NCBI GenBank assembly: GCA_965178125.1
Contig: OZ237754.1
Coordinates: 806,001-870,000, forward strand
From: Bilabrum cf. latius
Taxonomy: Eukaryota
Length of the DNA: 64,000 nt
Direction: 5' to 3'
Below are positions 1-64,000 of the stretch, piece by piece; position 1 is the stretch's first letter, and each line of letters begins with the position of its first letter. Both the position numbers and the translations under genes were made by a program. The notes beneath the pieces were generated by a model. The model worked only from the letters and a program-made list of their open reading frames with translations. It made no database searches and was not told where the DNA came from.

Positions 1-1405
1 AGGGGTGGCAAAAGGCGCACCGCCGTCCTGGCCCTGGCCAAACTGGCGGGGCCCGCCAGCCCCGCGATCCCCGGAGCGGACACACGGCCCGATAGACGGA
101 CCGTCTGGCTGTGCGCCGGCCTGCGCATTACCCTGGTGTTGACCTGGAGGACTGTTCCCCGGGTGCCCGCGAGGAGCCACGCGTCCACGCACCCGGACCC
201 GGCCACGGCCTGGGCGGCGGCGCGCGCCGGGCTCGGCTGCTGCTGCGGGGACCGTGTGACGAGTGCGAGCTGGTCCGGAGGCGGCTGGGGGCACTTGCCC
301 GCCTGCAGGGCGGTCACAGCTTCCCACGGCAGCAGCGGAGCCTCCCCCGGGCTCGCAACCCAGTGGGGAGCCCTGCAGGTTGCAACCGGCACGTCCACGG
401 TGCGGCCCGGCCGCGCGACCGAAGGGATGGTCAGTGTGGTCGCGATCCGATCCGCGGTGCACCACGCCGCGAGCCGGCCCTCCACAGAGGCGGCCATGAC
501 CACGAGGCACGGCTGCAGCTGGGCGGGGCCCCTTGTTCCCTAGGGGAGCACCTGCGGAACTACCGCTGCACTAACGGCCACTGTGCGCGGCGCCAATCGG
601 AACCCGTCGTTGTCTGCTGGATCGACTTCGGGGGCAAGCTGGCAGCCCTTGGCAGTGGCCGAGGCAGGCCCCAGCCCCAGCATGAGCACCTTCGGCTGGG
701 GGGCGGACTGCTGCGCCTCGGGTCCTGCAGAAGGCGGCGGCATGTCTGTGTCTCGGTGGTGTGACGAGTGCGGCGGCTGCCACAGCATGAGGAGCGTGCC
801 GGCCGAGGCCCACCGCCAGCGGGCGGGGGGGCACGGGGTGTGAGCGATGCCGGGAGTGTCCGCCCGGCCGACGCACACATCAACATCTGCGACGAGGACG
901 ATGCGGCGCGATTAAAGTGCGTGAAAAATGTCGGTCAGTGCGAGGAGGTGGCACTGCCAGTGTCGTCGCGGGGAATCGCGTAAAAAAGTAGGTGCGCAGC
1001 AGCAATCTACGCCGAATCGCTGGGGCGGAGCTCGTTCATGGTCATCTGCACCTAAACCAAGTTCAACACGAGTTAGTGCATAGGTGCTTGTATTGCTCTC
1101 TTACGTTCTCTGGTTGCCACACGCAGCATGTGCTCCACGAGCAAGGGGTATCCGCGGTCCGTGCCATCCTCTAGTTGCAAAATAGTATCAGGGCCGGCTT
1201 CAGCCAAGCTCGACCCATTTTCAAGTCCCACCCTCTGCACCGAGCGGATAAACCCAGTTCCGCCTTGTGTCTTGTTTCGCTTAGCGGCACGTTCGTCCCC
1301 GCCTGGGGTACCGGCGGCCCGCTTACTCCCAATTACTGCGACTCCACCGCCGGGAGTCTTGGGCAGTTTATGAATACTTCCACCTGGAGCGGATATTTCA
1401 TCCAT
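1..1405 (-). CDS. 5' part of a spliced gene running off the window; possible beta-propeller (Nup133-like, speculative)
   Basis: ATG at 1405. Probable intron 1052-1104 (GTAAGA...CACTAAC...TTTAG); the second junction is unresolved. The frame from ~885 to 1 is open if TAG 540-542 is read as sense. RWASAGTLLMLW and VVMAASVEGRLAAW loosely resemble recalled Nup133 N-terminal strands. Confidence 0.45.
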
Positions 1406-1597
1406 GTCACAGTCCTCTTAGTGGGCTTGGCTGGCAATGTCTTCAAAGATAGCTCGCGTTGCGTGAAAACTCCAAAGCAATACTCAGAAGAGCGGTAGCG
1501 ACAACCGAGCAAACAATTGTATGCACGGGATTAAGATGTGCTGCGAGGGTCAATCCAGCCCTAGTTGCCGTTTACGCCGCACTCTGCTTTTTTACTA

Positions 1598-1620
1598 GGG
1601 TGAAGGTTCGTCAATCCGGA
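1598..1620 (+). repeat. Left terminal inverted repeat of the transposon
   Basis: Exact reverse complement of 4293-4315. A degenerate second copy (GGCTCGTCAAGTCGGA) follows at 1622-1637. Confidence 0.93.
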
Positions 1621-1863
1621 TGGCTCGTCAAGTCGGAATGGGCATTCAAACTGCAATTCGCGTGTAGCTCGCCGAATTTTCGCTAAGTGAGAACAGTAAT
1701 CACTCAGCAAAAAGTTCTTGAAACATTTAAACAAAAGGCTCGATGTGAGTGTATTGCAGATATCGTAAACGCGCGTGCGAGGTGGCGATGGAACCCCAAG
1801 TGGTTCCCAAGCGACGCCCAAAAAAGCGCCAAATTCGAGCTTTTTATCCTGGTTTTGAGCCAG

Positions 1864-3807
1864 ATGAATAGTCAATAGGATGCTCTATCCCATCTGAAAG
1901 CACGGGGTCTGGACATTCCATCTTCGACTGCCTCTGACTGGGTGAAGAAGGCAGCATCCGGACAAACGGTCGGTGCGAGAGGCGGTTCAAATCCGACATT
2001 GCCTAGGGAAGCAGAGGAATAGCTGGAGCTTCTCATTTCGGAGCTGAATAGATCAGGTGTTCATCCACATCCAGACTTCATCATTTCTTTCGCTAACTAT
2101 TGGCAAGACCTGTATATGAAGAAAGCGTTCCCCCGTCGCAAGTACGACAAGCTGTGTCGTGGCTGGCTCAAGGGATTCAAGAAGCGGTTCAAGATTTCTG
2201 CGCGGCGTAATGAGAACTACTAGCCAGAACGATTCCTAGTTAGGGCTAGCAGCGTCAGGGAGCTGTTCGCCATCCTGCGCCGCCTATTCAAGACGTTCAA
2301 GATCCAACTGCGCCGTCAAGTGGTCGTGTGCAATGAGTCCGGGTTCCAGTGCTGTGCTGCAGTTACAGCAGGTCTTGTCTCAACAGGGGCTCCATCATCT
2401 TCATCATCATCAAGCAGTAGCTCGGCTGCTTCCGGGGGAGCATCAAATCACCCCGAGGCTAGCGCTTGGAGGCCAACTGCCAAGGATTGCAACGCCGTCG
2501 AGTACGGAACGAGGCACACCACCACGCTGCTGTGTGCGTTGGATGCAGACGGCAAGCATGTGTGTAGCATCTACATCACAAAGGGCAAACACCGTGACGC
2601 CATTCCCCCTCCCACTGTGAGCGAGATCTCCAAGAAGGACCCGGAGGTGCTCCGGCATGGGCGCGACCTCCTCCGCTCGTCACCCAAGGCGTTCATCAAC
2701 AGCAAGCTCTGGCGCGACTTCATCGAGAAGTTGGTGTGGAATCTTGACAACCACTAGGGGCGGTAGGCAAACGAATGGTCCATCCTAATCACAGACGGAC
2801 ACTCGGCACATTACGACTTGGACACCATCGCCTGGGCCTTTGCCCACCGCCTCATCATTGTGACGATCCCCCCTCACTCCTCGGCAGAACTGCAGGTAGA
2901 GGACGTTTCGGTATTCAAGCCGCTCAAGACAGAGTTTCGAAAGCTGGTGACCACGTACACTACAAGCATTCCGGAATTCTACGCGAACAAGGACTGGACG
3001 CCAAGGGCAGTGGCGTACGCCCTCGCCAACATCTTGCGACCAAGTGGGGACAAGCCCGCCGGGCATGTCGTACACAGTGGCTTCGCGCACTGCGGCCTGT
3101 GGGACTACGATTCAGACACCCCTCTGCATGAAATTAACATCAAGAAGCGCATTGCGGAGTGTAAGGGCCGTGAAGAACACATGAAGCTGGGTCGGAAGAG
3201 GAAGCGCCAGCCGGCGCAGAGGCACTGGGAGGCACGCGAGGAGGAGAGCGGAAAAGTCCTAGAAGCCATGGATGGGTCAGACATCGGGAAGCAGACTTTG
3301 ATTGCGTCGTCGAGGGGAAAGAAACATGCGGGGGAGCAGTTCGAGAAGGTCAAGAACGATGCAGTGGAGCGAGCTACCAAACGCCTGCGATCCACCCAGC
3401 CGGGGGGCCGCCGAGACCCCCTGGAGCAGGAGCGGCAAGGGCGACCGCAGGACACGCGCGTGTACTGGAACTCAAAGCAGCTGGACACGTGGGCAAAGAC
3501 AAAGGTATCAGCTATGATTGCAGCTGCAGGTACTTCAATTGGAGCCACGCGATCCGTGCTTGCCTCAGTTGGCAAGGTCGTTGGGGCTCTCGGTACCTTT
3601 ATGGAGGTCACCAGTTCCAAGGATGCAACCGAGGAAGATAATGACAACGCTTTCATGGCTCTGACGGACCAAATAAGCATGATGGAGTCTGTCTCGGCGA
3701 CCGCATCATCTGCATGTGATGAACTGGAGAAGGCCCGGGCAGCTGCCAGCGAGCAGAAGCCACGCCCGCTGCAGATCGAAGATGAGGCCACAGGTGGAAG
3801 CTCCTGA
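1864..3807 (+). CDS. CENP-B-type HTH plus DDE_1 transposase (~647 aa with TAG=Gln; start uncertain)
   Basis: One frame with TAG at 1876, 2020, 2221, 2755 and 2764, ending TGA at 3805. Motifs: LPREAEE*LELLI, GWLKGFKKRF, VCNESGF, ILITDGHSAH and IPPHSSAELQVEDVSVFKPLK, with 35 residues between the last two Asp. Confidence 0.85.
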
Positions 3808-4601: not shown

Positions 4602-5909
4602 TCACGTCCTCTGCCCCCCCTCCAGCTTGGCCAGCTCGGACCCCTCCCCCTCGCCCCCGCTGTCCTCCCGGGAGCCCCCGTTGCTGTCGTCACCCCGCGC
4701 AGCCACAGCCCCCGCACCCACGCTCGCACCGCTTTCCCCCCCGTCCCTCACCCCCGTGGCCTCCGCCAGTTTGGCCAGCCTCTGCCTCTCCTGCGATGCC
4801 TGGTACTGGACAAACCCGTAGTACACGCCCCCGCTGAACCCGATGAGCAGCCCCATGAAGTTGGTCGGCTCGAAGATGTAGTCGGAGAACAAAAACAGGG
4901 ACAGGATGAACGCGGCGAAGTTCTTCACCTGCCCGATCACGGACTGGGTGGTGGCCCCGTTCAAACTGGAGCTAAAGTACGTCGACAGGTTGAGGAAGAA
5001 CGCCAGAGTGGCCGAGAAGAAGAACACGACCATGAAGCCGGCATTGGCGAGGTTGGGGAATGACAGGGCCTTGCTCATCTCCCCCGTGCCCGCGCACACG
5101 ACGAACAGCACCGGCAGGGTCAGCACGGTGTTGTAGTACAGGATCGCGAACGTGGATAGGTTGCTCTGCTTCTTCACGTCGCCGATCGAGGTGGTGTACA
5201 GCGCCGTGAGGACGTTGGTCAGGATCACCAGCCCATACGAATACAGGTCAAAGGTGAGGTCCTTCCAGGCCGCGATACCCGCCCCCACCAGCATGATGGC
5301 CACCGCAAAGAGCACCTTCTGCGAGGGTGTCTTGCCGTAGTAGTAGTACTCCATGCCCATGGCGAAGCAGATGGTCGTGCGCCGCAGCGCGGTGAACATG
5401 GGCACGTTGACGCTCCCCAGCGCCATCAGCGAGACGACGACGTATCCCACGAAGGCCAGAGACAGGGGTGCGATCTTCTTGGCCAGCTCCCAGTTGAAGG
5501 AGGGCAGCGTGATGATGCCCATCTAAGAGACGACCGTGAGTGCCACGAGCGTGAACAGGCTCTGGCACACGGTGAGGAACATGGGGTACTGGAAATCGTA
5601 CGTGCTCATCACGGCCTTGTTGAAGAGCGTGATGGTCATGCTGCTCAGGCCGTACATGAGAGCCCAGAACATGCCGCTGCCCATCGCGCCCCCTGCGCCG
5701 CCGCCGGAGGACGACTTGGAGGAATTTGCTGATTTGGATCCCTTGCCACCGCTGCCATTCTATCCAGCTGGTCCCACTACCGGCACGCCGCCCGACGAGC
5801 TGGGAGGAGCTTCCGAAGACATGTCTGCCTCAGGCGTTGATCTCGTGCCCTGTTCCAAAGTCTCTGCCGCGCGAGTCCCGTAACCGCGCTGGCGAGATTC
5901 TCCCTGCAT
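4602..5909 (-). CDS. Nucleotide-sugar transporter, SLC35D/TPT family (~435 aa)
   Basis: ATG 5909 to TGA 4602 in one frame with 2 TAGs (5760 and 5523). ITLFNKAVMSTYDFQYPMFLTVCQ lies upstream of the TAG; VPMFTALRR and TTQSVIGQVKN lie downstream. Multiple hydrophobic helices. Confidence 0.88.
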
Positions 5910-6361
5910 TAAGCAGAGAAGCGAATAGACTGCTGCACAAACACGGCAGCAACGAGCAGGTACAGCTGCTCAGACTTCCCTGCGACGGCAAAAACGGACA
6001 GAACCACAGTTGGAAATAGTTTCCTGAGGCACTAAGAGACAGTAAACTAGCACATGAGTACGAAAATGTCATGGCTCTGCTGTGGCATAGCCAAGCACGG
6101 CAGATGGGGTGCGCAAGATTCTTCCGGTTCGGAAGTACAGTTGCGATGCGATGCTCAAGGAGCAATCGTGTGTTGCTCCCGATCCTTCGCTCTCGATTCA
6201 TTGTTTTGATCGTTACATCTGATGTGAATAATTTACTCACTGTGCTGTTGGGCTGTCCTTGTGGAGTTTTTGGCCAACGATCTCGTCGCGGCCAGGTTGC
6301 GTGCGATTTCACGGCGGCCGAAAATATTGCACCTGCGGCAACTCGACGCATAGACCTTGCT

Positions 6362-9300
6362 ATGAAGAGCGGCCGGCTAGATCTGCTCGATCTGAATGAA
6401 GGGGAGCATTACTTTGAGGAGTATGACGGGGAGTACTAGTACGTCTCCCGAACAGATGCTGAGGGCACCGTGCGACGAGGAGCGGATGCAGTAGCCGCGA
6501 GTGTCACGGAGCATGCGTACGAACCAGGAACGTTTCACGTAGCCTCCAAAGCCATTTACTTTGAACCCGAGTCTGCATACCTTCCAATCCTCCGATTCCG
6601 GTTCGCGGACATGCCAAGACCCCCTGCATCGGTCCTGCGGCTAAGCCAAGGCCCGTAGGCGGCGTTGGGCGAGCGCAAGTCGGCGCAGGCGGGATCCACT
6701 CTATTGTTTCAGGCGACACAAGCCACTCGGATCAAGCAAGACGGTCGCATTGGACCTCACTAGACTGTGGTGCTCGATAGCGGCCCGGACGCCGCGGGCT
6801 CGAGCCTGGGCAAGGACATTGCCGACGAGCCCGCGCTGGTGGAAGGGAGGGGAGTGGCCATCCTGAGGGCCGGGCACGCCGGACTCGATACCGACAAAGC
6901 AGCAAGACTAGAGGACCTGCTCCTGCTCTGCTTCCGCGCCGCGCACTGCCGTGCGCTGCACCGGCTGCAGGGTGCCTCTGGCCGGCCGCCCACGGAAGAC
7001 GAGTTGCTGGGTCCTCTGGTCCGGAGGCGGTGGGAGCTGCCTCCCCCTGGGTATGCGGGGGCAACGGGAGGTGGTGCGGCGGGTGCATCGCACGGTGGTG
7101 CTATCCTCGCGCCCGGTGAGCCCGGCGGGCCGTCATCCTTGTCATCTTCATCTTCAGGGATGGGCGCCCCGACCCTGTCGGCGGGGGAGTCCATGCTGCC
7201 CCAGGGCCCCTGGCCCGTGCTGCGGGCGCGTCCACTGGTGGACCAGGACTGCCGCTTGTTCCTCAGCGACAGGGCGCTGTACCTGAGGCCGTCCGCCGTG
7301 AACTGCCCCAGGGCGGGGGTCCCCGACCCGGTGCAGTCCATTGCGGTGGCGGCGGCGGCGGGAGAGACGGCGCTCCTTGGACCGGTGCCCCAGCTGGGTG
7401 CACTGCACGGTAGTGAAACCGGCGGGAGCGGGGCCCCGCTGGGCGCACCCTTGGGCGTACCGGGGTCGATCGGCACACCTGCAGGGTCGGGAAACCGGAA
7501 CCGTCACCGCGACCTCCGTGCTAGGCTGGATGACCCGGGTGCATCGCACGATGCCGTAAGGGCGGGGGAGCTGGCCGCGTTGGAGGGCGAGCGGGCGTCT
7601 TCTGGTGGTGCGGGCTCGGGGGCTATGGAAGCGGGGTCGGGGGGTGCGGGGGGCCAGTGGGGGGGGGCGAAGCTCCGTGTGGGGTGGGAGAACGTTCGCG
7701 TGCTTCGGCGGCGCACGCGCATGCGGAGGGACGTGGGTCTAGAGCTGGAGCTGCTGCCCAGCTCCAGGGGCGGCGCGGGATCCGGTGGGATGGGCACGGG
7801 CATGGGCATGGGCATGGTTGAAGGGACAGGTATGGAGCCGGGGGTAGGGTCTTTTGCAGCCACGGCCACGGGCACGGGCACGGGGACAGGGACCGGTGGT
7901 GGCAGTGGGTCGAACGGGCAAGGGGGAAGGCGCGGCCGGGAGGGGCTGAAGGAGATCGGCGGCGCCGCGGGAGGTTCCGCAGGGGAGTCCTCGTCACTGT
8001 CCAAAGGGGGGCGGCGGCGCCGTGGCAGCAGCCGCTACTCGGATTCGGAATCGGACGAGCCGACGGCCGCGGCACGGGCCGAGTAGCAGCTCCTGCGGAA
8101 CCCATGGCTCCTGCAGCCGCGCGGCGCCGCCGTCTTGCTCGTGTTCCGCAGCCGTGGGGAGCGGGAGCGCGCCTTGGCAGCGATCGCGGGGCAGTGCCCT
8201 GGCGTCTTGGTCGCGCCGGCGCGCCGGTCCGTGGCGGAGGCCCGCTGGCTCCGGGCCGCCCAGGGGGCCTGGCGGCAGGGTGCCCTGGGCACGTTCGAGT
8301 ACCTCGCGGTGCTCAACTCCGCGGCGGGTCGGTCGAGGTGCGACCTGCAGCAGTACCCCGTGTTCCCCTGGGTCATCCGGGACTACGAGAGCTACGAGCT
8401 GGACCTGGAGGCCGAGGGAGCCGCGTGGCTGCGTGACCTGGCGGTGCCCATCGGGGCCATGAACGAGGCGAGGCTGGGGAAGTTTCGGGAGAAGCTGGAG
8501 AGCCTGCGGGTGGACGGGGGTGTGACGAGTGAGGGGCCGGGGCACGGCGAGCAGCCGGGAGGAAGGAAGGAAGGCGCCGGGCCTGCCGGTCCTAGGGGCA
8601 GCCCCGCGCGGCCGGGCCCAGGGAACAAGAGTGGCAAGCCGCACCAGGAGCCCCTGCACAAGCACGGGCTCTACCGCTCGCACTACAGCAACCAGTCCTA
8701 CGTGATTTTCTACCTGGCCCGCGTAATGCCCGAGCACATGCTGCGGCTGCAGTCGGGCAGCTTCGACGCGCCCGACCGAATGTTCCGCGGGGTTCGCCAG
8801 GCCTGGGAGTCGGTGACGGGCACCAACGGGATGGACGTCAAGGAGCTGGTGCCCGAGTTCTACGAGCCTGGCACGGCGGGCCGGTTCCTCGTGAACTCCA
8901 GGGGGATCCGCTTCGGCGAGCTGTCGGACGGGAGCACCGTGGGGGACGCCGAGCTGCCCCCCTGGGCGCTCGACGCCTCTGATTTCGTGCTGCAGTGCCG
9001 CAGGGCGCTGGAGCACCCGGCGTGCTGCAGTACGATGCACCGATGGATCGACCTGGTGTTCGGGAGCCGGCAACGGGGCAGGGCCGCCGACCTCGCCGAC
9101 AACCTGTTCGAGCCGGACAGCTACGAGGGCGCCGTGGACCTGGACCGGATTTCTGATCCGATCCGCAGGGAACAAGCCAGGGCAGTGCTCGCGGAGCTGG
9201 GCCAGACGCCCTCTCAGCTGTTCCTCAGCGACCACCCCCATTGGGTGGGCCCCCAGATCGGGGGGGTCATAGGATAGCCGGATGCATCCGGTGCAGCGGG

Positions 9301-12300
9301 GGCGGGCGGGGATCAGGCGCTGGATGAGGCAGTGGCGGTGAATCGGAGCAGTGACGTCACTGCGGGCGGGCCGTCTAGCGGTGCAGGCGCCTCGGACGGT
9401 GCAGGCGATGCACCCGCGCCGCGGGCGGCGGACTCATTCCGAGCTGCATCCAATGCATATGATGCAACCGCTACGGCCGGCAGCACCGACCAGCGCACCG
9501 ACGGTCGCGAAGATGAAGATACGAAGGCTACCGAGGAACACATCATCGCCTGGAAGGAAGCACAGTCCCAGTCGTGGTCCGCCTCCAAGGCCGTGGAGGA
9601 TGCAGCCAGGTCGATCAAGCGGTCCGCACCGCAGCACGTGCTGCGGTTCCATCGACTCTGGGCCAGAAAGGTGCCCGACCCAGACGAGGAGATACGGGTG
9701 GACGAGGGTGTGACGAGTGAGGATGCCTCTCGAGAAGAGGCCTCGTCCTCTCCCGTGCCGATGGCCCAGACGGGTGGGATGGCAGGGGAAGGCGAGGGCC
9801 CTGGTGCTGGTGCTGGTGCTGGTGCTGGAGCAGGTGCGTCGGCGGGGTCTGGTTCCGGGCCCGACTCGCCTCGGCTGCTCCGGGGCTCCTCTGTGGGCAC
9901 CAGCGTCCGAAGCGGGTCTCCTGCGGTGTCCCAGGGAACAGCAAGGGAGGGAGAGGGGAGGCGGAAGGGGGGTGCCGCGTCCCCCAGCAAGCGGGGGTCA
10001 GCCAGGGGCCGTGACCCCGCAGAGGGGGTGCTCCGCAGGGACATCGAGGAGTCGGCAGGGGCGTGCGACGTGGTGGCGGCAGGGCCGGGGACGTGGCCGG
10101 GCACGGTGCGTCTGCACGGCGGTCCGGTGGAGGCGGTTTGCGCCTCGGAGCTGCAGCCGAGCCGGTGCGTTGTGACTCTGGGTGCTGACGGGCTGCACAG
10201 GCGGTGTGGGGTGGCCACTGCGGAACCTCTTGCTCTCGCCGCGGCGCCGTTCCGGGGGTATGATGAGGCTCTCATGCCTTCGGGGTCATCATCTTCATCT
10301 TCCAAAAAAGCTGCTGCGGGCAAGGGCAGAGACACAGCTGGAAGTGCTGCAATGCCGAAGCCTCTCGCGACCAAGACAGCTTCACAAGGCAAAGGCACAG
10401 ACAAAGGCGCCATCAGTACCATGGCCAGCTACCCCACTGCGGGGGCACCCCTCGGGGGTCAGGACTTCCTGCTGGCGGGGTCGAGCCGGGGGTCGGTGTG
10501 CCTCGTGCGGCTGGCGCGGGGCTCGCCTGTCAGCAGAGTGCAGATTGGGGCACACAAAGGCCGCGTGCTGTCGTGCGCTGCTCCCAGGACTGCGCTCCTG
10601 CGGCCCTCCGGAGAAGAGGACCAAGAGGCCCTGGCGGCTGGGTCGGGGTCGGGCAGGGGCGGCGGGAGAGGGGGCAAGGGAGCCGGTGAGCGTCTTCGGC
10701 GGATGTCGTCACTGAAGGCGGTTCGAAGGGCTGCCGAAGAAGCCGGAGCGAACGTTCTCTGCACGGCGGGGGCAGACGGGGACGTGTGTCTGTTCGCGGT
10801 GGGGGCCGCTGGCCAGGGGGGTGCGCCTGCCGCCGGGGAGCAGGAAGAGGAACTGGCCGGTGGGGTAGGTGCATTGCACGGGGGTGCAGGGGATGCATCG
10901 CTGCCGTCGCTGCATCTGCTTTGCAGGATAGAGGCCAGGGCAGTTCTGGCCGCGCTGGATCAGGTCGAGCAGGGGCAAGGGCAAGGGCAAGGACAAGGGC
11001 AAGGGCAAGGGCAATGGCAAGGGGGAGGGAAGGGACGGAGGGCGGGCGATTGGCCCCCCGCCGTGCCTGCTGGTCTCTCCTCAATCAGTGGAGCTGGACT
11101 TGAAGACGATGACCAAGAGGATGGCGGTGCCAGCGGTATCAAAGGCAAAGGGGTGGACCTATCCGCACTGCTGGGACCCACCACCTCCTCCTCCTCCGCG
11201 GCAAGCCCGCTCCGACCTCGCTAGTCCGGGGAGAAATCCAACGGCAGTAAGAAAGACGGCGTAAAGAAGAAGCTGGAGCTCGGCTCGGAATCGAATTCCA
11301 AGCGATCGAGGCCGAGTGCAACGCCAGTGCCAGTGCCCGCAACCGCCGTGGCCTTGTCCCAGGCAGCTGACCGGTTGGCCGTGGGCTTCGGGGACGGGTC
11401 TGTTCTGACCGTGCGTCTGCGTGCGGTGGGAAGCAAGGCAGGGGGAAAGAAGGGCAAAGGGAAGGGCAAGGGCAGCGGCAGCAGCACCCCAAGGACAGGT
11501 GCAGCCGGTGCAGGTGAGCTCAAGGCCTTCCGAGCTAGGAGTGGACGGGACCTGTGCGGCCTGGCGGACGGGATGCAGGTCGCGTGGGCTGCGGACGCAG
11601 CCAGGGAACAAGGGTCTGGAACAGCGCAGGTGCCGGTGGGTAGACCGGAGCTTGGTGGCCGCTCGGGGATCGTCTGGATGCAATGGGTGGAGCTGGAGAC
11701 ACAAGAAGGGGGCAGCACAGGGGAGGACGACGATGGTGGAGACGGGGGTGAGCGGGGTGCGGGTCTGCTGGACGCGGATGACAGCGTCTGGGACGGGTAC
11801 GGGGACGGGGGTGAGATGCCTGCGGGAGTAGGGGGTTCTGAGGTGGGTGCAGGGGGCAAGGGGGGACATGAAGAGGAGGAGGATGGGGGTGGTGGGACCT
11901 AGGGAACAAGCGGCGAGGGAGCCAAGGCGCGGCTGCTTGCTCTCTCCTCTAGCGGGGAGCTGGCTGTATATGACGCTGACGCTGTGTGCTTGGCCGTGTT
12001 CGCGCTGGGCCACCGGTGCACCTGCGCAGCGCTGGCACCGGGCGGGAGGGTGCTGCTCGCGGGCGGGGAACAAGGATCGCTGGCGGCGTACGATGCGTTT
12101 GCGGCCGTGCGGGCCGCGAATGGCGGCAGTCGTGGAGTGGGTCGCGATGGTTCGGCGCCGGGGACGACTGCGGCATTGGTTGCGCCGCCCGTGCTGCCGC
12201 TCGAGGTGCTGAGCCGAGCGCTGCGTCCGGGCCGCGAAGGTGTGACGAGTGCTTCTAATGGTGTGACGAGTGTTATTGATTATGGGGAGTTCAAAGAGGA

Positions 12301-25844: not shown

Positions 25845-25912
<68 letters not shown>

Positions 25913-36234: not shown

Positions 36235-36305
<71 letters not shown>

Positions 36306-50131: not shown

Positions 50132-53100
50132 TCAGCAGTCCTGTCCCGGAAACCGGATGACACCCGTCTCTGTGAGCAGCGCCTGGGTGAGGAAGAGCAC
50201 GTACGCGACGAACATGACCCGGCCCAGGTTGAGGTCGAGCTTCCACCCGAGCCCGGCGATGGCCGCCACGGTCAGGATCACCATGAGCAGGAGCACCACG
50301 ACGGAGTAAAACAGCCCGCACGACCCGATCGAGATGCTCGAGCCCGGGTCCACCATGGCGGTCTGGATGAGCCAGGGGAGGGGCAGCCCGAAGCAGATGT
50401 CGAACACGTTGGATCCCACCGAGCTGCTCACCGCCATGTCACCGAAGCCGTTCTTGGCCACGACGATGGAGCTAAGCGCGTCTGGGATGGACGTCCCCGC
50501 CGCCAGCACAGTCAGGCCCATGATCGCGTCGGGGATGCCGATCGCGAACCCGAGCGTGGAGGCCCACCAGACCATGCAGTAGGCGTACACTGCGATCCAC
50601 ACGAGCGACATGCCGAAGGTGGCCCAGTAGAGGTGCCGCTGGCCCTCCTTCTTGCAGTGGGGAACAGTGTACCAGAGCAGCACCACCAGGGGGAAGGTCA
50701 CCAGCCAGACGCATTGCATGATGGTGCCCTCCGGCACCTCCCACGGGTTGGTGGGCTCGTCGTCGTCGTCGTCCTCCTCCTCCTCTTCCTCCTCCTCCTC
50801 TTTATCGCCCTCCTTGGCCTCGTCACCCCCCGGCTGCTTCTCACCACCCGCGTTGTTCCCTGCGGTGGCCGTGGCAGAGGTGCTGCTGCCCCCCGCACCA
50901 GCACCCGAAGGCTTTCTCTGCGGAGACAGCTCCGACTCGTTCTCGACGGCCGCAGTGGCCCCCGTGCCGGCCTGCAGACCCCCGCCCAGGCCGCCCAGTG
51001 ACACGCCGGAAGGGGTGGTTTGAGACTCCGGATCCGCGTCGGGGGAGGGCAGCGCCTGCGCGGCGGCTGCTCCCTGGGACAGGGACGAGGAGGAGGGAGC
51101 CACGGTCGGCTTGCCTGTGACTGTGACTGTGCCTCTGGCGCCGGCCTGCTGCTCCGTCTTGTCCGTCTCCACCACGTGGGTCTGCGACATCCTGCGGTGG
51201 GCCTGCCTCTGGTGCACCACCATCTCCGCTACGGCCCTCAGAGTCGCTTTCTTCCTGCGTTTTTTCACCTTATCCTCCTCGTGCACCGCCCTCAGCGCCT
51301 CCCCCACCCCCATGCCCACGCCTCCACCACTCCCCGCGCTCAGCCCGCCCACGCTGCCCTCCCCGTCCTCGCCCCCACCGGCGCCCTCATGGACCCCACC
51401 CCCCTGCTAGGCCCCACCCCCCTGCTGCTGCTGCTGGGCGGAGGAGGACTGCTCCTGCATGAGCTTCTTGGCCCTGCCCAGCTTCTCCTGCAGCTTGTCC
51501 AGCCGCCCCTTGAGGATGTACCTGAGGGCCACCCCGCGCATGTCCACGTGCTGCACGTAGGCGTTCCCGCTGTCCAGACCGCCGTACGACACGGAGAAGG
51601 AGGGCACCTTGGACATGAGGGGGGAGCCAGTCCCCCCCCCCGCCCCCGTCCCCGCGCCGAGGGGGGCGTGCGCCGTCGTGTCAGGGCCCGCCTCACCGGC
51701 CCGGGGCACCTCCACCGCCGTTTCCTCGGTGGATTCCCCGCTGGTGGTGGTGGGAAGCTTGTTGTTCCCTGCTGCGGCGGCCCCCTCCTTGCTCTCTCGC
51801 GTGCCGAGCGGAGCGTAGCTCCCTGCCAGGTGAGTCCCCTGGTCCTCCTCCCCCCCCCCTCCCCCCGGGGTTGGAGTGCCTCCATGGACGCCCTGCCTGC
51901 GCTCGGCCTGTTCCACCTTGCGGGCCGCGAGTTCCAGTGCGGCGTCCTCGCCCTCGATGCCTCCGTCCCCTGGAGCGACGGCTCGGCTCGCGCAGCATCG
52001 TCCCTTCAGGGAGTGCACGAGCGCCTCGGCCCGCGCGCGCAGGGTCGCATTGAAATACATAATAGTTACGTAGAGCACATACATCAGAAGGAGGATGAAG
52101 GCCTCGTACCAGTCGATCTTGGAGTCGGCAGTAAAGCCGGCTAGAACGAGCAAAGCGATCGAATAGTACGTGCAGTCGCGAAACAGCGGCCACCACGTCA
52201 AAGGGAGAGAGCCAGGAGCAAACAAAGCGCACAGCCCAATCACCGCCAAGATGTTGAAGGTCGCGCTGCCGACGATGGTTCCAAACCCGATGTCTGACTG
52301 CGCGATAAACACCCCAATGAAGGACGTCGCTAGCTCGGGAGCGCTACCACCAGCTGCGGTGATTGGTGGTGACAAGTTGATTCCCAGTACATAGTGCAAC
52401 CTCGTGAACTCCAGTCCCGCGGTAGAGCGAGCAAACAGAGTTGCTGGCGTTTTGCCGAAACACTCTGGACGCGCAGCAAGATGTTGGACTGATCTGGACT
52501 CCGAGTGTAGCCGATGTCGGCACGTGCAAGGGATGCCCACGGAAAATTGTGTTGGGGCGGTACTGGCCGATGATGGCCAGGGCTAAGCAACTGCATTCGT
52601 AACGGAAGGTATTCAGCTGCAACGGAAACAATCCTAACTCACCTGCCATAAGGGTGGCACCTGCCACATCTTCCGATATCTGAAACTCTTCAATTATCCT
52701 TTCAAGACCAGCCACAAAGTACTCATCACAAACTGCGGGAGGAGGTAAACCCAAGATTCGAGCGTTGAGCAAATTGGGGAGCGGAAGATGGGATGGTTGC
52801 ATCGCTGACGGTTCGCCCAATGACCGTCCGCAAATGCCGCTACCATCAACTGAATAGTTATATGATGAAACGTAAAATGCGGAGTGCCAGCGGTAGGGAC
52901 GTCTTGCGTCTTGCGAGGCACCGCCTGTCAGCACCCGCTCTCACTAATTGCGAGGCCGTAGAACATGTACACTGTCCCAATGGCATGCAAAAACAGCCAG
53001 TATCTATTTGTAGCTTCATCATACGGCTATTTGTTGAGGATAGCATCGTCTGGAAACTCCTATAGTCGCCTTGAAGCACCCGAGGGCTCCTTCTCTTGCC

Positions 53101-53224
53101 CTAAACCTGCGAACGCCAGCAGGCATACTACACCCAGCGCACCGGCAACAAAAAGCGCCCTTATATTTCTTCGGGGTCGTTTCCACTTGAATGAGGCCCG
53201 CAAGGGCGCAATTTCCCCTCTCAT
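50132..53224 (-). CDS. K+-dependent Na+/Ca2+ exchanger (NCKX/SLC24 family); introns 52733-52944 and 52354-52642
   Basis: EFPDD...LHAIGTVYMFYGLAI|ICDEYFV, DVAGATLMA|AGGSAPEL, GTIVGSATFNI, LAAGTSIPD and GDMAVSSSVGSNVFD. TAG at 53060, 53027 and 51407; TGA stop. Confidence 0.92.
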
Positions 53225-53346
53225 GGCTCCGTGAGGCGCCTGCGCGCAGGGTCTCACCCGGAAGACCCGACTCGACAAAGGTGCACGCTATCTAGGAAGT
53301 CTGGATTGCTGAGGCGTGCTCGCGCTTCCTGCCGAGCAGCACAATC

Positions 53347-54894
53347 ATGGACAAAAGAGAGGGTTTTGTACTTGAAGAGGTGCATAGAGACGACCCGTAC
53401 CATGCGGAGCATTCTAGTGCCGCGGCTGCGGGTTTAGCCGGAGAATCGATGCTAGATTTTGACTCTGCTGGGAATGCCAGCTTACAGGGCGAACTGGCCC
53501 CGCAAAGCGTGTACAAAGTGCATACTCCGACGGAATCGGCTCATAGTGGGATATCTGGATCGCGGTATGACGTCTTGATGCCCAAACCGCTTCGAGGAAG
53601 CGCGGCAGCTTTGGGCTCAACAGTGCAGCACTACAAAGTCGGGGCCTCCTATGGGCGGCTAGGCGACCCCAACCGCGACTAGAATCGCTTAATAAAAACC
53701 GAAGATGCTGCGGATGCGCTCCAGGCCGTGATTGGTCCATCGGCGGCGAGCGCGGGCGGGCCAGTACCAAGCGCTCCTGGTTCTAGTAGCGGCGCAGTGA
53801 TTGAGCTCCATGCCAACCGTGATCGTGGCCGCGCGACGGATGGCAGTAACGGTGGCTAGTTGAGCAAAGATGATACTCCACACGTCCGATGGGCGGATCA
53901 AGCGACGCAGGGCGAGACTTCCGGCGCGAGAGGCGGCGTGGTTGTCGAAAAGCAAGCGGGCGGGGCAGGTGCTTCGAGCCGCAACGGAGCCGAGCAGCAG
54001 TCGGAGCACGAATCGAAGGACTCGGAGCCGGAATTTGAGCTGAGTGGGGAGCACGCCGACGTGCTCGGGGTTGTCTTTCAGTTCCTTGACGAGGACTGCG
54101 ACGGCGAGCTGAGCGACGACCAGCTGCGGTACGCTGTGACGGCCATGGGCATCCCGCCCACGTGGCCCTTCCTGCAGGAAATAAAGAGCCACTGCGTAGA
54201 GGGACAGGGAGTCAGCTATCCGCTGCTAAAGAGCGCCATAGAAAATCGCACGGAGTAGCAGCCGATCAACTGCGCGAGGCTCGACGCGCTCTTTTCCGGC
54301 TTTGCCTCGCCGGCGTGCGGCCCGGGCGAGGTGCCCACGCACCTGCTCAGGTACCTCCTGAGCGGAGTGCACACGGCGTACGGGACGCAGCTGAGTGATG
54401 GCGAGACGGACCAGCTGCTGGATCACCTGCGCATTCGTGAGGGGGAGCGGGTGCACGCAGTGGACTTTGTGCGCGCGCTCAGCAGCGGTTTCCTCAAGAT
54501 GGTGCCCGGGAGCGAGCAGGACGTTGCCCCGCCGCCCCCGTCCAGCAGGGAACAACGGTCCGACATGGCCCGCCGCAGGATGGAGCGGGTGCAGCAGGCA
54601 GCGGAGGAGAAGGAGGCGATTTAGGAGAAAGGGGCCCGGGAGGCAGAGGAGCAGGCGAGAAGGGGGGCGATGCCTGGAGGAAGCGCAGCGGAGGAACAAG
54701 ATGAAGGAGAAGCGAGGGGAGTGGCATCAACGGCACTGCTGGAGGCACAGATGCCGCGCCCATCGGACATGGTGGAGCGCCGCGGGACGAGCACCGGAGC
54801 GAGCGCCCGAGCAAGTGCTAGGGTGCCGCACACGATTGACCTTCAGGCGCAGGCACAGCTGCGGGACGGCAGCACATTTGTAACGCGGGAATGA
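53347..54894 (+). CDS. EF-hand-containing protein (~515 aa)
   Basis: One frame with TAG at 53680, 53857, 54256 and 54622, ending TGA. EF loop FQFLDEDCDGELSDDQL, followed by degenerate calmodulin-like helices. Confidence 0.7.
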
Positions 54895-56544: not shown

Positions 56545-56592
<48 letters not shown>

Positions 56593-56832: not shown

Positions 56833-59800
56833 TCACGCCTCTCCTGCAGCGCCGCGCTCCGCCGCCCGCCGGACCAGCGCCCTGCCCTCTGCCCTTGCGA
56901 CCTCCGCGGGCAAGTGCTCCGTGCTCGCACTCAACGGGATGCTCACCGTGGCCGACCCCAGGCGCCCGTCCTCGCTCGTCACACGCACCACGATAGGCGC
57001 CGTGGCCGAAGGGCTGGCGGCTTCCGACTCGGTCGCGATGCGGGAGGGCGCCGCGCCTGCGGAACCGCCCCGGGCTCCGGTTCCGCTCCCGTGCACCTCC
57101 AGCAGCCGGCGCCGCGCATCCGGCGGGCTGGCGGCGTCCAGCGTGGATCTGATAAAGCACCGCAGCAGGCCGTAGTACGTTGTTCCCTGGCTGCTCCAGG
57201 CCGCCCCCTGGTCCGCGGGGGACCCCGAGTGCGTGGCGAGGACCGTCCCGTGCCCCGAGAGCACCTCGAACCGCAGTGCAGTGCCACTCACGGGGGACAG
57301 GGCCCCGTTCTCGTCCACGATCTCGGCCCGCAGCATGGCCACGTCCTGACCGTCTGCTACCAGCGCGCTGCCTGTGCCGGTCGTGGGGCTGGGCGCGTCC
57401 ACCCTCAGCCTCAGACCCGCTGGGCTTCCCGGGGACAGCCGAGTCGCGGTTGCAACCACCCTGCCCTCGGAGTCCCTGGCCACCGCGGTGAGGTTGCCCG
57501 CCTCGTATGGGATAGAGTCGAAGGTCGCAGTGCCGAAGTAGGCCATGGGCTGGGCCTCCCCGCCCTTGGGCTGCTTGCCGTTGACGAGCAGTGAGACAGA
57601 GTGCGCGTTGGTGTAAGCGTGGATGACCCGGGTGGGCTTGCCCTTGGACTGCCCCTGCGCCGGCTCCCACGTCTCCGGGATGGAGACCTCGTATTTCAAT
57701 TCCGGGTCCACGGGTGGCCGTCCCGCGTCTGCGGTGCCGTTGATGGCCGCGAGCCACCATGCCCTTACCCAGGCGGCTGACTCCTTGGCGAACCCCGCCA
57801 CGTCAGCGATGACCCCCCTAGCCTTGGAGGTCTGCGGCCATCCTCTCGACTCGCCAAGGTAGCTGAAGCTGCGGGACGGTGCGGTGCGGTGCAGTACAGT
57901 GCAGTGCACGTAGGGATAAATCATGGCCGTACGCAGGCAAGGGGGCGAAGGAGATCTGGCGCGATGCATCGCATGTAACGAGGAACGACAGGGAGTGAGG
58001 TTGCAAGCTACATGGACTGGACACGGAACAGGCGCGGGCAGCAGGACGGTCAGCAAATCACCCCCCCCCCCGCCTTCCCTTCCTTTCTTTTTCTTGCTCT
58101 CTCTCTCACCCGCTCCACACGAAGGTGCCGCTCATGAAAGGCCTCCCGTCGCTCTCGTTCACCTGAGTGGCAGTGCACTGCGATATCTCGTCGTTGTAGA
58201 ATACACCGGTGGTGTTGTCCCCCGTGTACGTGCCCTGACAGTCCACACGGCACCCCTGCTTGCATCCGCTCGGTCTTGGGTTAGGACACGCGTCGTAGTC
58301 CACGCCCCTCTGGGATAGGCATGAGCAGCACTCGGTGGCCAGCGTAGGCTTGCCGGGGTAGTGCGCGTGGAAATCGTCAAACGTGCTCCCCGACTTGTGC
58401 GAAAACCCCTGCACGTCCAGGAATGCCGTGGAGAGGTTGGTCCCGTGGTGGTTCTGCGTGACTGGCCGCGAGGGGTCAACGGACAGGATGGCCTCCCGGA
58501 AGTACTGCGCGCTCGACTCGTTGTTGCAGCCCACCTCGCTGCGGTGACAAAAAGAGATGGGAAAAAGGGATCGATGTGTGCAAAACCACACACCGGCCGC
58601 GCGATGGAGCGGCCTCGTGCGGCACGAGGGCGCGCTCGGAGGATAGCATGGCATAGATGCATTGGAGCGCGCTGGCTCTCTACCCTGCCGCGGGCCTGCC
58701 CATCGAAGGTTCTCTCACTTGCAAAGGCTCCACAGAAACACAGATGCCCTGTTCCGGTCCCTCACCACCATGTCCCGGATGTCCTGGAGCTCCTGCGCCA
58801 CGGTTTCTTTGGTGGTGCCCCCCTGCTGTTGGTGACCCCCGTAGTCCCGGTTTTCGTCCATGACCACCACTCCCAGGGCGTCGGTGACGTCCAGGCGAGC
58901 CTGCACGGGCGGGTTGTGAGCCATCCTCCATGCGTTCCCGCCCACGGACCTCAGGGCTTGGGCCCTGAACAAGTTCACCCGGTCGGGGACGGCAGACCCC
59001 ACCCCCCCGAAGTTGCTGTGGTCGCAGAAGCCCCTCAGCTTCACGTGGCGCCCGTTCACGAAGAGTCCCTAGTCTGCCGTGAAGTCCAGGCGCCGGAACC
59101 CTATGCTCGAGTTTGTTGCGTCCTGCAGCTGGCCGTTAAGCTCCACTGCGGTCTCCAGCGTGTACAGCGCGGGGACCTGCACGGTCCAGGGAACAATGGA
59201 AGGCACGCTCGCGCGCGCCTCCAGCACGGCGGTGCCCCCGCCGGGACTCGGAGCCGGAACTCCCCCACCGCTGGAGCGGAAGCTCGCCACCAGCCTTCCT
59301 TCCGAGTCGAAGAGCCTGTGCGCGCTCGTGGCTGTGCCTGTGCCGGTGCCACGGCCCTGCCCTTGGGCAGCTGCTCCGGCGGCAGTAGCAGAATCCTCGT
59401 CGTTACGCACCGTCACCTGCACCGTCAAGTCGGCGCTGGCCGGGGCTCGCGGCGCCGCGCGATCCGGGTCCGCAGCGGAACCGCCCAGCAGGCTGATGTT
59501 CTGGGAGCGGGCAAAGACCCCCTCGCCCAGGACCCCAAGGTGCATCGCCTTGCGGGCCCGACGCAGGCTGTAATGCCGGAACAGCCCGCCGCCCTCCCGC
59601 CACCACCCGTCTCCGTACGACGCATCCACGTACACGGCCAGCACGTTCTCTTGCGCGGCGCCGGTTCCGTAGTGCAGCCCGGTGACGTTGTCGATGCGGA
59701 GGGCAAATGACGTGTACCCCTGCATGTGGGTCGGTCCCAGCTGCTAGCCGTTGAGCCAGGCGGTGGTCTCGTGGAAGGAGCCCTCGAAGAAGACCCACAG

Positions 59801-60458
59801 CTCCGACTGGCCCCCGTCCTGCCAATCCTGGGGCAGATTGAAGTGCTTCCGGTACCAGCCCACCCCCCGGGGGAGGAAGGCCTGCGATGGGGAGTTCTCC
59901 TCGGAGAAGTTCTGAGCCAGGAGCATGTCGTGAGGCGCGTCCACGATCTGCCAGCTGGAGTCGTCGAAGCCCGGCTGCGCGGCTGGAGGCGGGCCGGGCG
60001 GCGGCGGTGGAATCGTCCCGGCGTAGCGATCAGCCGGGACAGGTCCGGGAGATGCCGTCGGCTTCGTCCAGCACTGCGCGCAAAATTAAGAAGGAATACA
60101 TATGGGGTACGATCCCGGGTGAACCGATGCCGAACGGGGAATAAGGGTGGGCTACCATGCCGCGCCTTGCGCAGCGAGACCAACTGCAACTCACTTGTAG
60201 GGATGTCGGATTCCAGTCCCAAGCGACACAGGACGAATCTTCAGCGCACATTGAGCAGCATGTAGCAGGTTGTGATACATTAGGGTGCATGTTCCCTCCT
60301 GTCCCGTAGTTTACGCCCTTTTTGATCTCCCCGCATTGCCTGCGTGGATCGGGCACTGGACCCAGGTGGTGCTTCCAGCCAAAGTCAAAGTTAACGCTCT
60401 CGCGCAAGTTTTGTGCTAAGGTGTTTGTACTTAACACCCCGAGGACAAACAATATCAT
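56833..60458 (-). CDS. Secreted glycoside hydrolase family 2 (beta-galactosidase-like) with a PAN/apple insert, multi-exon
   Basis: NFDFGWK, GWYRKHF, FEGS...WLNG*QLG (TAG 59744), DGWWREGGGLFR, FTAD*GLFVNG (TAG 59069), WRMAHNPP, RDRNRASVFLWSLCNE, ATECCS and FVWSGFSYLGE. At least 3 GT-AG introns; TGA stop. Confidence 0.9.
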
Positions 60459-61348
60459 GCCTGCTCGTGTCTTTATCAGAGTGCAAACTGCAGTGGCGTC
60501 GCGTCTGGTCGCGTCAAAACGAATAGTGCACGCAACCACCCCGGCCGGACACATATCGATTGTTGAGTGCCCGTTGCACCCTGAAATTGCTGGGGGTATG
60601 CGGCTGTATCGAGCGCGTCTACCAAGGCAGCATCGGGCGGTGAGTGGCGCAGCATGGCACGTTGAAGTGAGCATGTACTGAATCCTCCACGAGACACCCT
60701 GACCCTTCAACCAAACGGGTATATGAGGCGTGCTGGTTTACGACCGTCGCGGTGCACCACGTCGGACCACGGATATCGGCTGGGGTGTAATTCAACGCAG
60801 GGCAGGATAGGATAGGCACGCGCTGCGAAGAAGCATCCGCCAGGATAGATCTACTGTCTGCCTGCTCCCACACACGGACGGCGGTCGATAGCCTTGGTAG
60901 ACGAGCGCAGTACGGTATCGAATCATCCATTTGGGGAAAGGCCGGGGTGGTGTTGAGTGACAGCGCGGCCGGTTTCATGGGGGCGGGCGAGAGTCCGTCT
61001 CTCCCAGACTTCGCTGGCCCGGGGGGAACCTTCACTGGCCAAAGTCGGTGGACACTGGAGAATGCGGCTTCACGTTCACATTCAGTTGTATTTTGGTCCA
61101 GACTTTTGTGTAGCTAGTAGAGTCCAAGCAGCTTGAGGATTATCTTCCTACATTGACCATTCGATTCTAGCGACCAAGTACTAGATCTACTTGTGAGCGA
61201 TGTGCCCAGTCCACCAATAGCACTGGAACGAGGACGTATCCCCGCCAGATGCTGGCATTCCCGATGCAAGTAGCTACCAAGCTCTTTCAGCGCGGTATAA
61301 ATGTGATTGACTGTTTTTTTTCTTCGCAGCTTGCTCTTTCTGCCGAAG

Positions 61349-64000
61349 ATGAGCGCTGCAGCCGGAGGCGGAGATGTCAGGGCTGCGTACTCTACTTTCG
61401 GTCTACAGCCTGGAGCCGGGGAAGCACAAATCAGCAGAGCTTTCCGCAAGCTCGCCTTTAAATATCACCCGGATAAAGCGGGTGTAAGCAGTAGTGCTCG
61501 CATGCAACGGCTGAGCGCAATGAAGCAGCGGCTTCTCGATGCAGAGACACGGCTCGCAAGGGGCGAAGACCTGGAGCAAGATACGGGGAGTGGCGACTCT
61601 GAAGATGATGATGACGACGATATCTGGATTCATGAAGAGTCGGGGACAAGGCTTAAGCTCTCAGTGGGGGAAACGCCCGGGGCCACGCTGATGCGACAGA
61701 TTCGACAGATGTGGGCAAAAGCAGATTCTATCAGTGCTGGGAAGCTTCGCGCGCTTTAGAGCATGCAGACAGAAGGCGGTAGACAGTTTTAGATCCTGCT
61801 ACGCGATTGGCATACCGAGGCTAAAAAATTCATCCGGACAGGACCCTGGAACGCCACCCATCCGGCCGTGCGACCTCGATGCGACGACTCAGAGCCTGCA
61901 GCATCTCTCATCATGCCTGCGCTGGTGGCCTTAAGCGAAACGATCCCACTGGGAGACTTCATTGCCACCCTACGGCCGAGCATGTGCGAAGACCGGCCCA
62001 AGGAGGGCGATCCTTCGCGCGACGCCGAGGCGTGGGAGGACGATGCGCTGGCTGTGCTGGACGCCATGGAGGCCGACGGGGAGCCGGAGTCGAGGGACTG
62101 GGACAAGTGGGCTAGGTCTGCGCAGCGGATGGAGCGGCTGCTCGAGTCACTATCACACGCGCGCAACATCCGCGGCGATCAATGCAAGACGTGTGAGTGG
62201 CAGCACCGGCATACGGTGGCCAGAGCCCTTCTACTGCGAGGCGATACGGAGCGGTCCGCATTGCTGGTGGCCAAAGATGTGCAGCACACACTTGCGGCTC
62301 GCAAGCTGGTCGTTCGATCACTGCTTCGTTTGCTGCGGGACATCGCGCAGGAAGCCTTCGATGCCATGCATCCTGACGCCAGTCCCCTGGTGGAATGCTT
62401 GGTGCGTGTTGGTGCAGCGGAGCCGCCACGCCCCACGCCGCCAATGGCGGATGCCCCTGCATCTGGTGGGGACAGATCTTCTGGTGCTCCTGATGGGGAC
62501 AGAGCTGCTGGTGCCTCTAGTGGGGACAGCACTGCTGGTGGGGCGGCTGCACCAGGGCCCGCCTCAGGGGCAGGAGCGGACCCAACTCCGCCCTCTGCTT
62601 CGACCGACCAATCGACTGCACACATGAAACCGCATGATTTAGCCGTGGAGTAGGCCAAGCAAGTAGCCACCTGTCTCCGGGGCTTGGTGGTTGGGCATGC
62701 ACTTGGTGATGTCGGGGCACTGGCTCTTCGAGCTGCCGACGCAATCCTGAAATATGTGCGAGAGTCGGCGAGAGCAAAGCAGCGGCAGGAACTCAAGCTG
62801 CTGTTCGACCGTGGACTGGGACGGGAGGATCACGCGGCCATGGGGAAGGGCATCTGCATGTTGGCAACACCTGCCGATCACGCAGTGCTACAAGAGGCAC
62901 TCTTGCCTTACCTGCGCCGGGACGTGTATAATAGCCCTGCCATCTCCGCGACCAGACGAGCAGCCATCGACGTGGGCAGGGTGTCATGCGGCCTAGCTGG
63001 CCAGGAGTGGAGGATCGGGGCGCGCCCTAAAGCAGCAGCTGGAAAGGCAGCTGCTCCACAGGCTACGGCTGCCACAATCAGCGGGGCTGACGCCATGACC
63101 TTGCTCGGAGGCGCCATGCTACGCGTAGGACCTTTTCAGGATGCCAGGCCGGCGCTGGAACCAGCTGTTCATCTGCTGTGGGGCAAGGTGCTAGCTGCTT
63201 CTGGAGGCATGGATCAGGCGCTTCTGGATCAGGATTGGGGTGCCATCACGCAGCAGCTGACCCCTAGAGGTATGCTTTCCAGTTGGGACAAGGCAATGGA
63301 GAAAATGGCACGCATGGACTCCGTTGGAACTGACCATCCTGCTGACCTCACACAAGCTGGAGAGTGCAACAGCTAGCTCCTGCCAACCTGTGACGAGCTA
63401 GTGCCACCACTCGACACCAAAGCCAACCAGATGGGACTGCCCAAGCTCTCCTTCAAAGGAATCAGTATAAGGCAGGTGCGCCGAATCGAAAAGGTCATCC
63501 TGAGGCGCGTGAGCACTTCTGTTGGAGAGAGGACTGCTGCCGACGGTGGCGCTGCTACTGGTGGATGCAGTGCTGATGCTAGCAAGAGCAAGCCATCCGG
63601 CGGCACTAGGTCTAAAGCAAAAGCCGATGCCAGCACTTCACGCTGCTCTGCGTGCAGAGAGGAGTGGGGTAACCTTGAGGTGGCCTAGGCGCTGCTGGAC
63701 CTGACGATGGCCGCTAACAGCTTGGACGAGGTGGTCGGGGCTTACGTGAATGCAATGCTGTGGCTGTTACGGGAGCTATGTATCGCGTCTCAGGACGAGA
63801 GCTATGACCCGAGACGTAGGACTGGCTCGAGTGGGAGACCGAGTGGTGACGATGCCCCAGGACCGGTGGGTGCTGCCGGTAGTGCCGAGGGTAGCGCTGC
63901 ATCAGTCAAAGGGGCTCAAGCTCCAGGAAGCGATGGTGAATCTGGAGCAGCAGATGCTTCCGAACTCGCTGCTTCAGAAGGCTCCGATGAGGGCTGGTTC
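61349..64000 (+). CDS. DnaJ-domain protein, 3' end outside the window
   Basis: AYSTFGL...ISRAFRKLAFKYHPDK. The frame is open to the window end through TAG at 61757, 61790, 62651, 63374 and 63686. Confidence 0.8.

Follow-up and report, generated by a model that had tools for sequence, protein, structure and literature searches.

A split between UAA and UAG is rare and has been described from a handful of nuclear genomes, the two codons nearly always changing together. In the fornicate Iotanema spirale, UAG is reported to be translated as glutamine, with UAA and UGA as stop codons and a predicted tRNA(CUA) (PMC5304391), and the ciliates Hartmannula sinica, Trochilia petrani and Protocruzia tuzeti are cited as reading UAG as glutamine with UAA kept as a stop codon (PMC11687900). 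For five UAG-recoded ciliate genomes, UAA is given at 86.9-98.3% of the gene ends, a usage argued to fix its role as a stop codon (PMC11687900). UAG alone has also been reassigned to leucine in the rhizarian exLh, which is reported with UAA at 56/71 ends and the substitution L69A in the release factor eRF1 (PMC5304391), and to serine in Scotinosphaera (as cited in PMC11687900). Here, we analyse a 64,000-nucleotide stretch of nuclear DNA (G000:C20:806001-870000, hereafter the window) from an assembly of 48.6 Mb in 111 contigs, the nuclear code of which is very probably of the table-15 type, with UAG read as glutamine and UAA and UGA as stop codons.

The code table itself is already known; the differences lie in the lineage, a stop codon hierarchy led by UGA and the recovery of a tRNA(CUA) gene with a Tyr-like body. 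While UAA is reported as the predominant stop codon of Iotanema and dominates in the UAG-recoded ciliates (PMC5304391; PMC11687900), it accounts for approximately 15% of the ends here, with UGA at approximately 85%. The eRF1 of Iotanema carries T32G, whereas the GTS motif is intact here, and its tRNA(CUA) is predicted to originate from tRNA-Gln(CUG), whereas the gene found here is closest to tRNA-Tyr, the two lineages being unrelated (PMC5304391). For Hartmannula and Trochilia, it is reported that no suppressor tRNA was detected (PMC11687900), in contrast to the tRNA(CUA) gene found here. In exLh and Scotinosphaera UAG alone is reassigned as in the present genome, but to other amino acids, and exLh has L69A where L69Q is found here (PMC5304391; PMC11687900). 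The NCBI table 6 (ciliate, dasycladacean and hexamitid code) shares TAG as glutamine and TGA as stop codon, but differs in that TAA is a stop codon here and a tRNA(UUA) was not found.

TAA and TAG inside genes and at their ends

The window has a GC content of 64%, with 0.74 at third codon positions (GC3). Counted from the first ATG, its 19 coding frames, 13 of which have Pfam support, comprise 16,276 codons with 78 TAG, 120 CAA, 480 CAG and no TAA, which agrees with the original prediction, made from the letters of the window, of no internal TAA against about 75 TAG. If TAA encoded glutamine and scaled as CAA to CAG, 19.5 TAA would be expected in the window (Fisher P=1.3e-7), and across the comparisons of A-ending codons the expectation ranges from 8 to 25, the weakest, CTA to CTG, giving 8 (P=0.001). 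The absence of sense TAA thus exceeds chance and GC bias. A high GC content, put forward in the prediction as a partial cause, may bias termination towards TGA rather than TAA, but does not explain the absence of TAA as a sense codon. As the frame limits partly derive from a scan with TAA set as a stop codon and are to that extent circular, they were rechecked with TGA only, upon which the long gene frames of the window again showed 0 TAA, the DDE and GH2 frames having some only 5' of the point where coding begins.

Genome-wide, Pfam family searches reading through stop codons gave 306 matches in which 154 TAG, 4 TAA and 9 TGA were counted by hand. All 4 TAA are intronic, so that TAA at glutamine columns, the observation by which the prediction would have given way to an ordinary table 6, was not encountered in these matches: two are located just past a GT donor, the domain continuing in a different frame past an AG, and the other two shortly 5' of an AG acceptor. 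In the loci L130 and L181, both intronic TAA are part of a CTAA a short distance 5' of the acceptor site, which resembles a branch-point motif. The fetched nuclear loci were also scanned with a coding score taken on both sides of the codon, which recorded 0 TAA against 1,098 CAG, 128 CAA, 94 TAG and 1 TGA, the sole TGA lying antisense to a kinase. TAA therefore does not appear to be a regular sense codon, with one frame, in L259 (discussed below), as the sole exception, and its uncoupling from TAG, as predicted, is upheld with the same exception.

All gene ends seen in the window, those of 16 single or terminal frames and the last exon of the sulfatase gene, are TGA (17/17), which matches the statement that no traced gene ends in TAA. 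Beyond the window, TAA is found exactly at the C-termini of conserved proteins. Histone H3 ends after RIRGERS with TGA at 11/12 loci and with TAA at 1/12 (L210), H2A with TAA at 7/8 loci, H2B with TGA at 9/9 loci and H4 with YGFGG-TAA. Among 20 small GTPases with a prenylation-type Cys motif at the C-terminus, 4 end with TAA (after CVVS, CGC, CC and CMIL) and 16 with TGA, a count that leaves out 7 motif-less terminal frames and 3 internal exons. Three ubiquitin-conjugating genes and 1 of the 21 kinases with the end reached terminate with TAA, and the proteasome family with TGA throughout (14/14).

A census of stop codons with a Markov model trained on the window covered approximately 0.9 Mb, or approximately 2% of the genome, drawn largely from the surroundings of conserved families, with some of the counted ends possibly intronic, and comprised 157 frame ends, 24 TAA and 133 TGA, equivalent to 15% TAA (95% interval 10-22%). 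Upon merging of identical C-termini, TAA accounts for 22/151 distinct ends, the internal case of L259 included. The median coding score after the codon is -14.6 for TAA (n=24) and -18.2 for TGA (n=133), compared with +7.9 for TAG (n=160) and +9.5 for CAG (n=1400); 23 of the 24 in-frame TAA are ends and 1 is internal, and none of the 133 TGA ends has a coding-like continuation. As TAA makes up 27% of the TAA and TGA triplets in all frames, but approximately 15% of the ends, it is under-used as a terminator. Given this share, a window of 17 genes without a TAA end can be due to chance (P=0.063). Of the description of TAA as 'a rare stop, or nearly unused', the first part holds, while the second, and with it the impression of a missing terminator, does not extend beyond the window.

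Five genes, eRF1 and those in L054, L056, L057 and L059, combine in-frame TAG with a terminal TAA, so the pattern does not stem from two mixed genomes, and contaminating DNA is an unlikely origin of the TAA-ended genes. As a separate observation, the assembly contains two 18S rRNA types of approximately 77-83% identity, a tandem array on contig C12 (L260) and one copy on contig C95 (L258, G000:C95:6099-7900), and the latter may derive from a second eukaryote.

With respect to TAG, alignments of Ras, proteasome and kinase paralogues from the whole genome place it at columns with Gln as the majority residue in 10 of 13 cases, with Glu in 2 and Lys in 1; 8 of the 10 Gln cases are the DTAG-Q site of Rab proteins. 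A column-likelihood score over 60 TAG sites in four families amounts to 45.9 for Gln, 8.5 for Glu, -73.7 for Leu and -81 for Tyr, and to 21.3 for Gln and 8.8 for Glu upon removal of the Rab column; with this score, 60/61 sense codons were called correctly. A TAG of the eRF1 gene stands at a column with Gln in 110/114 homologues, and one TAG of the CDK-like kinase of the window at a kinase column with Gln in 18/28 paralogues. The frame stays open over the next 50 codons after 88% of the TAG (n=160) and after 86% of the CAG (n=1,400), TAG is not depleted near gene ends (13/142 within the last 30 codons versus 62/614 for Gln codons) and it is found at 0/20 ends of the small GTPases with the Cys motif. 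Together, TAG appears to encode glutamine and was seen only internally, with a small share of TAG stop codons being possible.

Release factor, tRNA genes and placement of the organism

The eRF1 gene (L001:1068-2942, on contig G000:C35) ends with DDDFI-TAA, a column past which 100/114 homologues have no residue. In the transcript-like contigs X2 and X3, three GT..AG introns are spliced, the terminal TAA and both in-frame TAG are intact and the contigs end approximately 45-55 nt past the TAA; X2 and X3 are contigs, their status as RNA is a guess, with none of the runs recorded as RNA, and X15 is possibly source DNA. RNA editing of the TAG or TAA codons was not indicated, with no letter changes in three transcript-like runs, of which the X1 contig ends before the TAA. 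In a close metagenomic relative (L262, 82% nucleotide identity), the eRF1 gene has TGA at the position of the TAA and TAG at the position of a CAG, and both swaps, in one gene, are as predicted by a code with UAG as glutamine and UAA as stop codon.

The motifs GTS, E55, NIKS and YxCxxxF are intact in the encoded protein, and G29A, N30D, I35V, S60V, L69Q, F117P, N129S and K130H depart from conserved columns (human numbering, inferred from GTS). L69 is the site altered in the exLh protein (L69A), where it is tied to readthrough of UAG (PMC5304391). L69Q might have a causal role in a weakened recognition of UAG; it is shared by 4/114 homologues, and divergence extends over the N-domain as a whole. 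Two in-frame TAG are located in the N-domain part of the gene, one of which encodes the L69Q change. Speculatively, leftover recognition of UAG would truncate eRF1 and so provide a possible feedback.

An apparently single-copy tRNA(CUA) gene is located at G000:C23:907607-907679(-) (L005:1501-1573(-)); it was recovered by the scans for CUA, scores 69.8 bits against the Rfam tRNA model and folds into a full cloverleaf. Among the 19 matches of a loop pattern scan for CUA and UUA, this gene is the sole nuclear tRNA. A search for a tRNA with a UUA anticodon had been proposed together with the original prediction, and a UUA pattern scan that allowed for an intron gave 29 matches without a UUA tRNA; the comparable CUA scan gave 56 matches, among which visual inspection showed the known gene and no second one. 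A single UUA call by relaxed ARAGORN requires a 625-nt intron and stands among many low-score calls; it was rejected as noise.

The anticodon CUA is described to pair with UAG and not with UAA (PMC5304391; PMC11687900). A dedicated tRNA(CUA) would accordingly decode UAG and be unable to pair with UAA, and with no tRNA(UUA) found, eRF1 would still terminate at UAA and UGA; in a genome of 64% GC, UGA would then take approximately 85% of the ends and leave approximately 15% to UAA. The sequence itself shows the tRNA(CUA) gene, the substitutions in eRF1, the location of TAG at glutamine columns and that of TAA at genuine C-termini. On this reading, the tRNA(CUA) would be expressed and charged with glutamine, so that Gln is inserted at UAG, the recognition of UAG by eRF1 would be weakened and a tRNA(UUA) would presumably not exist.

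The organism is apparently a bicosoecid-like stramenopile related to Cafeteria, a marine flagellate, but is neither Cafeteria roenbergensis nor Cafileria marina. The best named match of normal length for eRF1 is Cafeteria roenbergensis at 67%; three longer, duplicated-looking plant and insect eRF1 records score higher, yet are 53-59% identical. An eRF1 tree groups the protein weakly with Cafeteria (79/91), with Bicosoecida CB-2014 outside that group. For nad7, the sole named match is Cafileria marina at 71%, with environmental relatives at 88-100%. The mitochondrial contig C111 carries a tRNA(UCA) and its genes are open under table 4; a mitochondrial tRNA(UCA) is likewise reported for Cafeteria and Cafileria, and Cafeteria roenbergensis is described with a high nuclear GC content, as found here (PMC6972860; PMC6723347). 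In the parts of these reports dealing with the genetic code, a non-standard code is mentioned for the mitochondria only (PMC6972860; PMC6723347). A literature search found no nuclear code change in a stramenopile or bicosoecid; subscription journals were poorly covered by it, and a change may be described in the publication of the genome. Among metagenome contigs, L306 holds an eRF1 gene that falls in a clade close to Cafeteria; it contains 2 in-frame TAG, ends with TGA and shows divergent motifs (TASQIKS and YWCDSRF), which suggests that TAG recoding is broader in the group or has two origins. The eRF1 matches in L312 and L320 contain one TAG each.

Alternative readings of UAA and UAG

Several observations weigh against a code with UAG as glutamine and UAA as a plain stop codon. 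An in-frame TAA is present at L259:1142-1144 (G000:C2:428541), with 221 codons before and 311 after it, in a frame of 533 codons (479-2080(+)) with a GC3 of 0.70-1.0 on both sides of the TAA and several hydrophobic stretches. Two TAG sites stand opposite Glu and Lys of solved proteasome chains, both at columns variable among paralogues; a further search against PDB gave no match at the cut-off used. The tRNA census is partial, as Rfam scored 63/780 candidates and the pattern scans require a canonical T-loop. Furthermore, in a comparison with 22 other nuclear tRNA types, in which the Leu, Asp, His and Trp types are not included, the tRNA(CUA) is identical to tRNA-Tyr(GUA) at 50/73 positions versus 44/73 and 43/73 for two tRNA-Gln, and its acceptor stem matches tRNA-Tyr at 12/14 positions, C1-G72 included.

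The L259 frame, continuous and coding-like, speaks for an ambiguous TAA, mostly a stop codon with infrequent or context-bound readthrough, for example as glutamine via a near-cognate tRNA, in a lineage part-way to table 6; the loss of a minor stop codon would come at low cost. Such ambiguity is nevertheless improbable, with just 1 of the 24 in-frame TAA internal, none in the stricter two-sided scan with its 94 TAG and 128 CAA, and no tRNA(UUA) in the scans. The TAA of L259 lies within a 15-nt GT..AG stretch, which could be an in-frame micro-intron; readthrough, a nonsense allele or an error in the assembly are further possible explanations. The L259 gene has no homologue in the genome other than itself, in metagenomes or among 1.84 billion representatives, and its one match to Pfam is below cut-off. 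A codon common both inside genes and at their ends, as in context-dependent stop codes, was not found; rare readthrough is possible. That TAA and TAG both encode glutamine with TGA as the sole stop codon, as in an ordinary table 6 where TAA is rare through high GC, is in line with the uniform TGA ends of the window and the proteasome family, but is scarcely credible with about 20 sense TAA expected and 0 seen in the window, TAA directly following the last residue of histones, Rabs and eRF1, its swap with TGA in an orthologue and a coding score that falls after it. An extinct TAA, neither sense nor stop codon, would account for its lack in both roles within the window, yet has a negligible probability given the 22 sampled frames that it ends, the one internal case counted among them, including those of H2A, H4 and eRF1.

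The resemblance of the tRNA(CUA) to tRNA-Tyr raises the question of whether it is a tRNA-Tyr derivative through which TAG is read fully or partly as tyrosine. The eukaryotic determinants of tRNA-Tyr identity are given as C1-G72 and A73 (PMC9976931), of which the tRNA(CUA) possesses the former, but has G73 as the discriminator base and a D-stem like that of Gln(UUG) and Glu(CUC). With this discriminator, the strongly negative column score for Tyr, the eight occurrences of TAG at the Rab DTAG-Q column and the swap of CAG and TAG in an orthologue, a reading as tyrosine is very improbable, and the tRNA(CUA) would rather have a Tyr-derived body switched to glutamine. A literature search for a Tyr-derived tRNA of this kind, with poor coverage of subscription journals, found none.

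If UAG is glutamine and UAA a stop codon here, the consequences reach beyond this genome. In the UAG-only recoded genomes with known stop codon usage UAA is dominant, from which it has been argued that UAA is locked (PMC11687900); as UAA is kept here though a minor stop codon, the mechanistic constraint that CUA cannot read UAA becomes separable from the argument of usage, and the step toward table 6 becomes testable within one lineage. The assembly provides an actual tRNA(CUA) gene, a tRNA reported as a prediction for Iotanema (PMC5304391), together with an eRF1 sequence. Annotated under table 1, genes of this assembly are cut short, while under table 6 approximately 1 gene in 7 is extended. 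As a tentative scenario, which we regard as possible though rather doubtful as a whole, a duplicate of tRNA-Tyr became tRNA(CUA) and was remodelled for glutamine (G73 and a Gln/Glu-type D-arm) in the first nuclear code change of a stramenopile; UAA, at approximately 15% of ends and perhaps read through at some sites, would mark a living intermediate from the standard code to table 6, and the clade would be a candidate host of giant viruses with TAG as glutamine and TAA as stop codon. Cafeteria is the host of the giant virus CroV (PMC6972860), and code 15 is listed among giant-virus codes (PMC13524828); a relative of Cafeteria that uses this code offers a lead to code-15 giant viruses, not evidence. 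A search of the genome for NCLDV capsid proteins gave no match, as did its control, so that it does not speak for their absence.

Genes and repeats of the window

The coding features of the window are collected in Table 1. The frame at 23231 is, by eye, presumably methyltransferase-like, and that at 29327, on the same basis, presumably SET-like.

Table 1. Coding features of the window with strand, in-frame TAG codons, gene end and Pfam support
Feature	Position	Strand	In-frame TAG	End	Support
DDE_1 transposase frame	1687..3807	+	5	TGA	Pfam
TPT-family transporter	4602..5969	-	2	TGA	Pfam
PH-BEACH protein	5660..12835	+	8 past first ATG	TGA	Pfam
Sulfatase, multi-exon, 5' end approximate	13148..15653	-		TGA of last exon at 13148-13150	Pfam
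B56-like and protein kinase frame	15880..20082	-	2	TGA	Pfam
Frame	20738..22573	+	0	TGA	no Pfam match
Frame	23231..27520	+	11	TGA	no Pfam match
Leucine-rich repeat protein	28040..28873	-	1	TGA	Pfam
Frame	29327..32653	+	5	TGA	no Pfam match
Gln-rich low-complexity protein	33684..38309	-	19, several within poly-Gln tracts	TGA	
BBS1	38778..41210	+	3	TGA	Pfam
CDK-like kinase	41370..42602	-		TGA	Pfam
Arginyl-tRNA-protein transferase (ATE_N, ATE_C)	43075..49779	+	4	TGA	Pfam
Na/Ca exchanger, terminal exon	50132..52612	-		TGA	Pfam
Frame	53191..54894	+	5	TGA	no Pfam match
Ribosomal protein L7/L12	55279..56157	-		TGA after last residue of Pfam match	Pfam
Glycoside hydrolase family 2, multi-exon, 5' end not fixed	56833..60085	-		TGA of last exon	Pfam
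DnaJ-domain protein	61307..64000	+	5	stop outside, extends past window edge	Pfam

Unless TAG is read as glutamine, the frame of the DDE_1 transposase is not open, so the element follows the code of its host. Directly past the stop codon of the Gln-rich gene, a tandem repeat of approximately 57 bp in approximately 8 copies occupies positions 33220-33700 of the window. The 12-mer GTGTGACGAGTG is present in 20 copies versus 0.03 expected, on both strands between positions 254 and 48174, mostly within coding frames on the sense strand, where it is often translated as GVTS.

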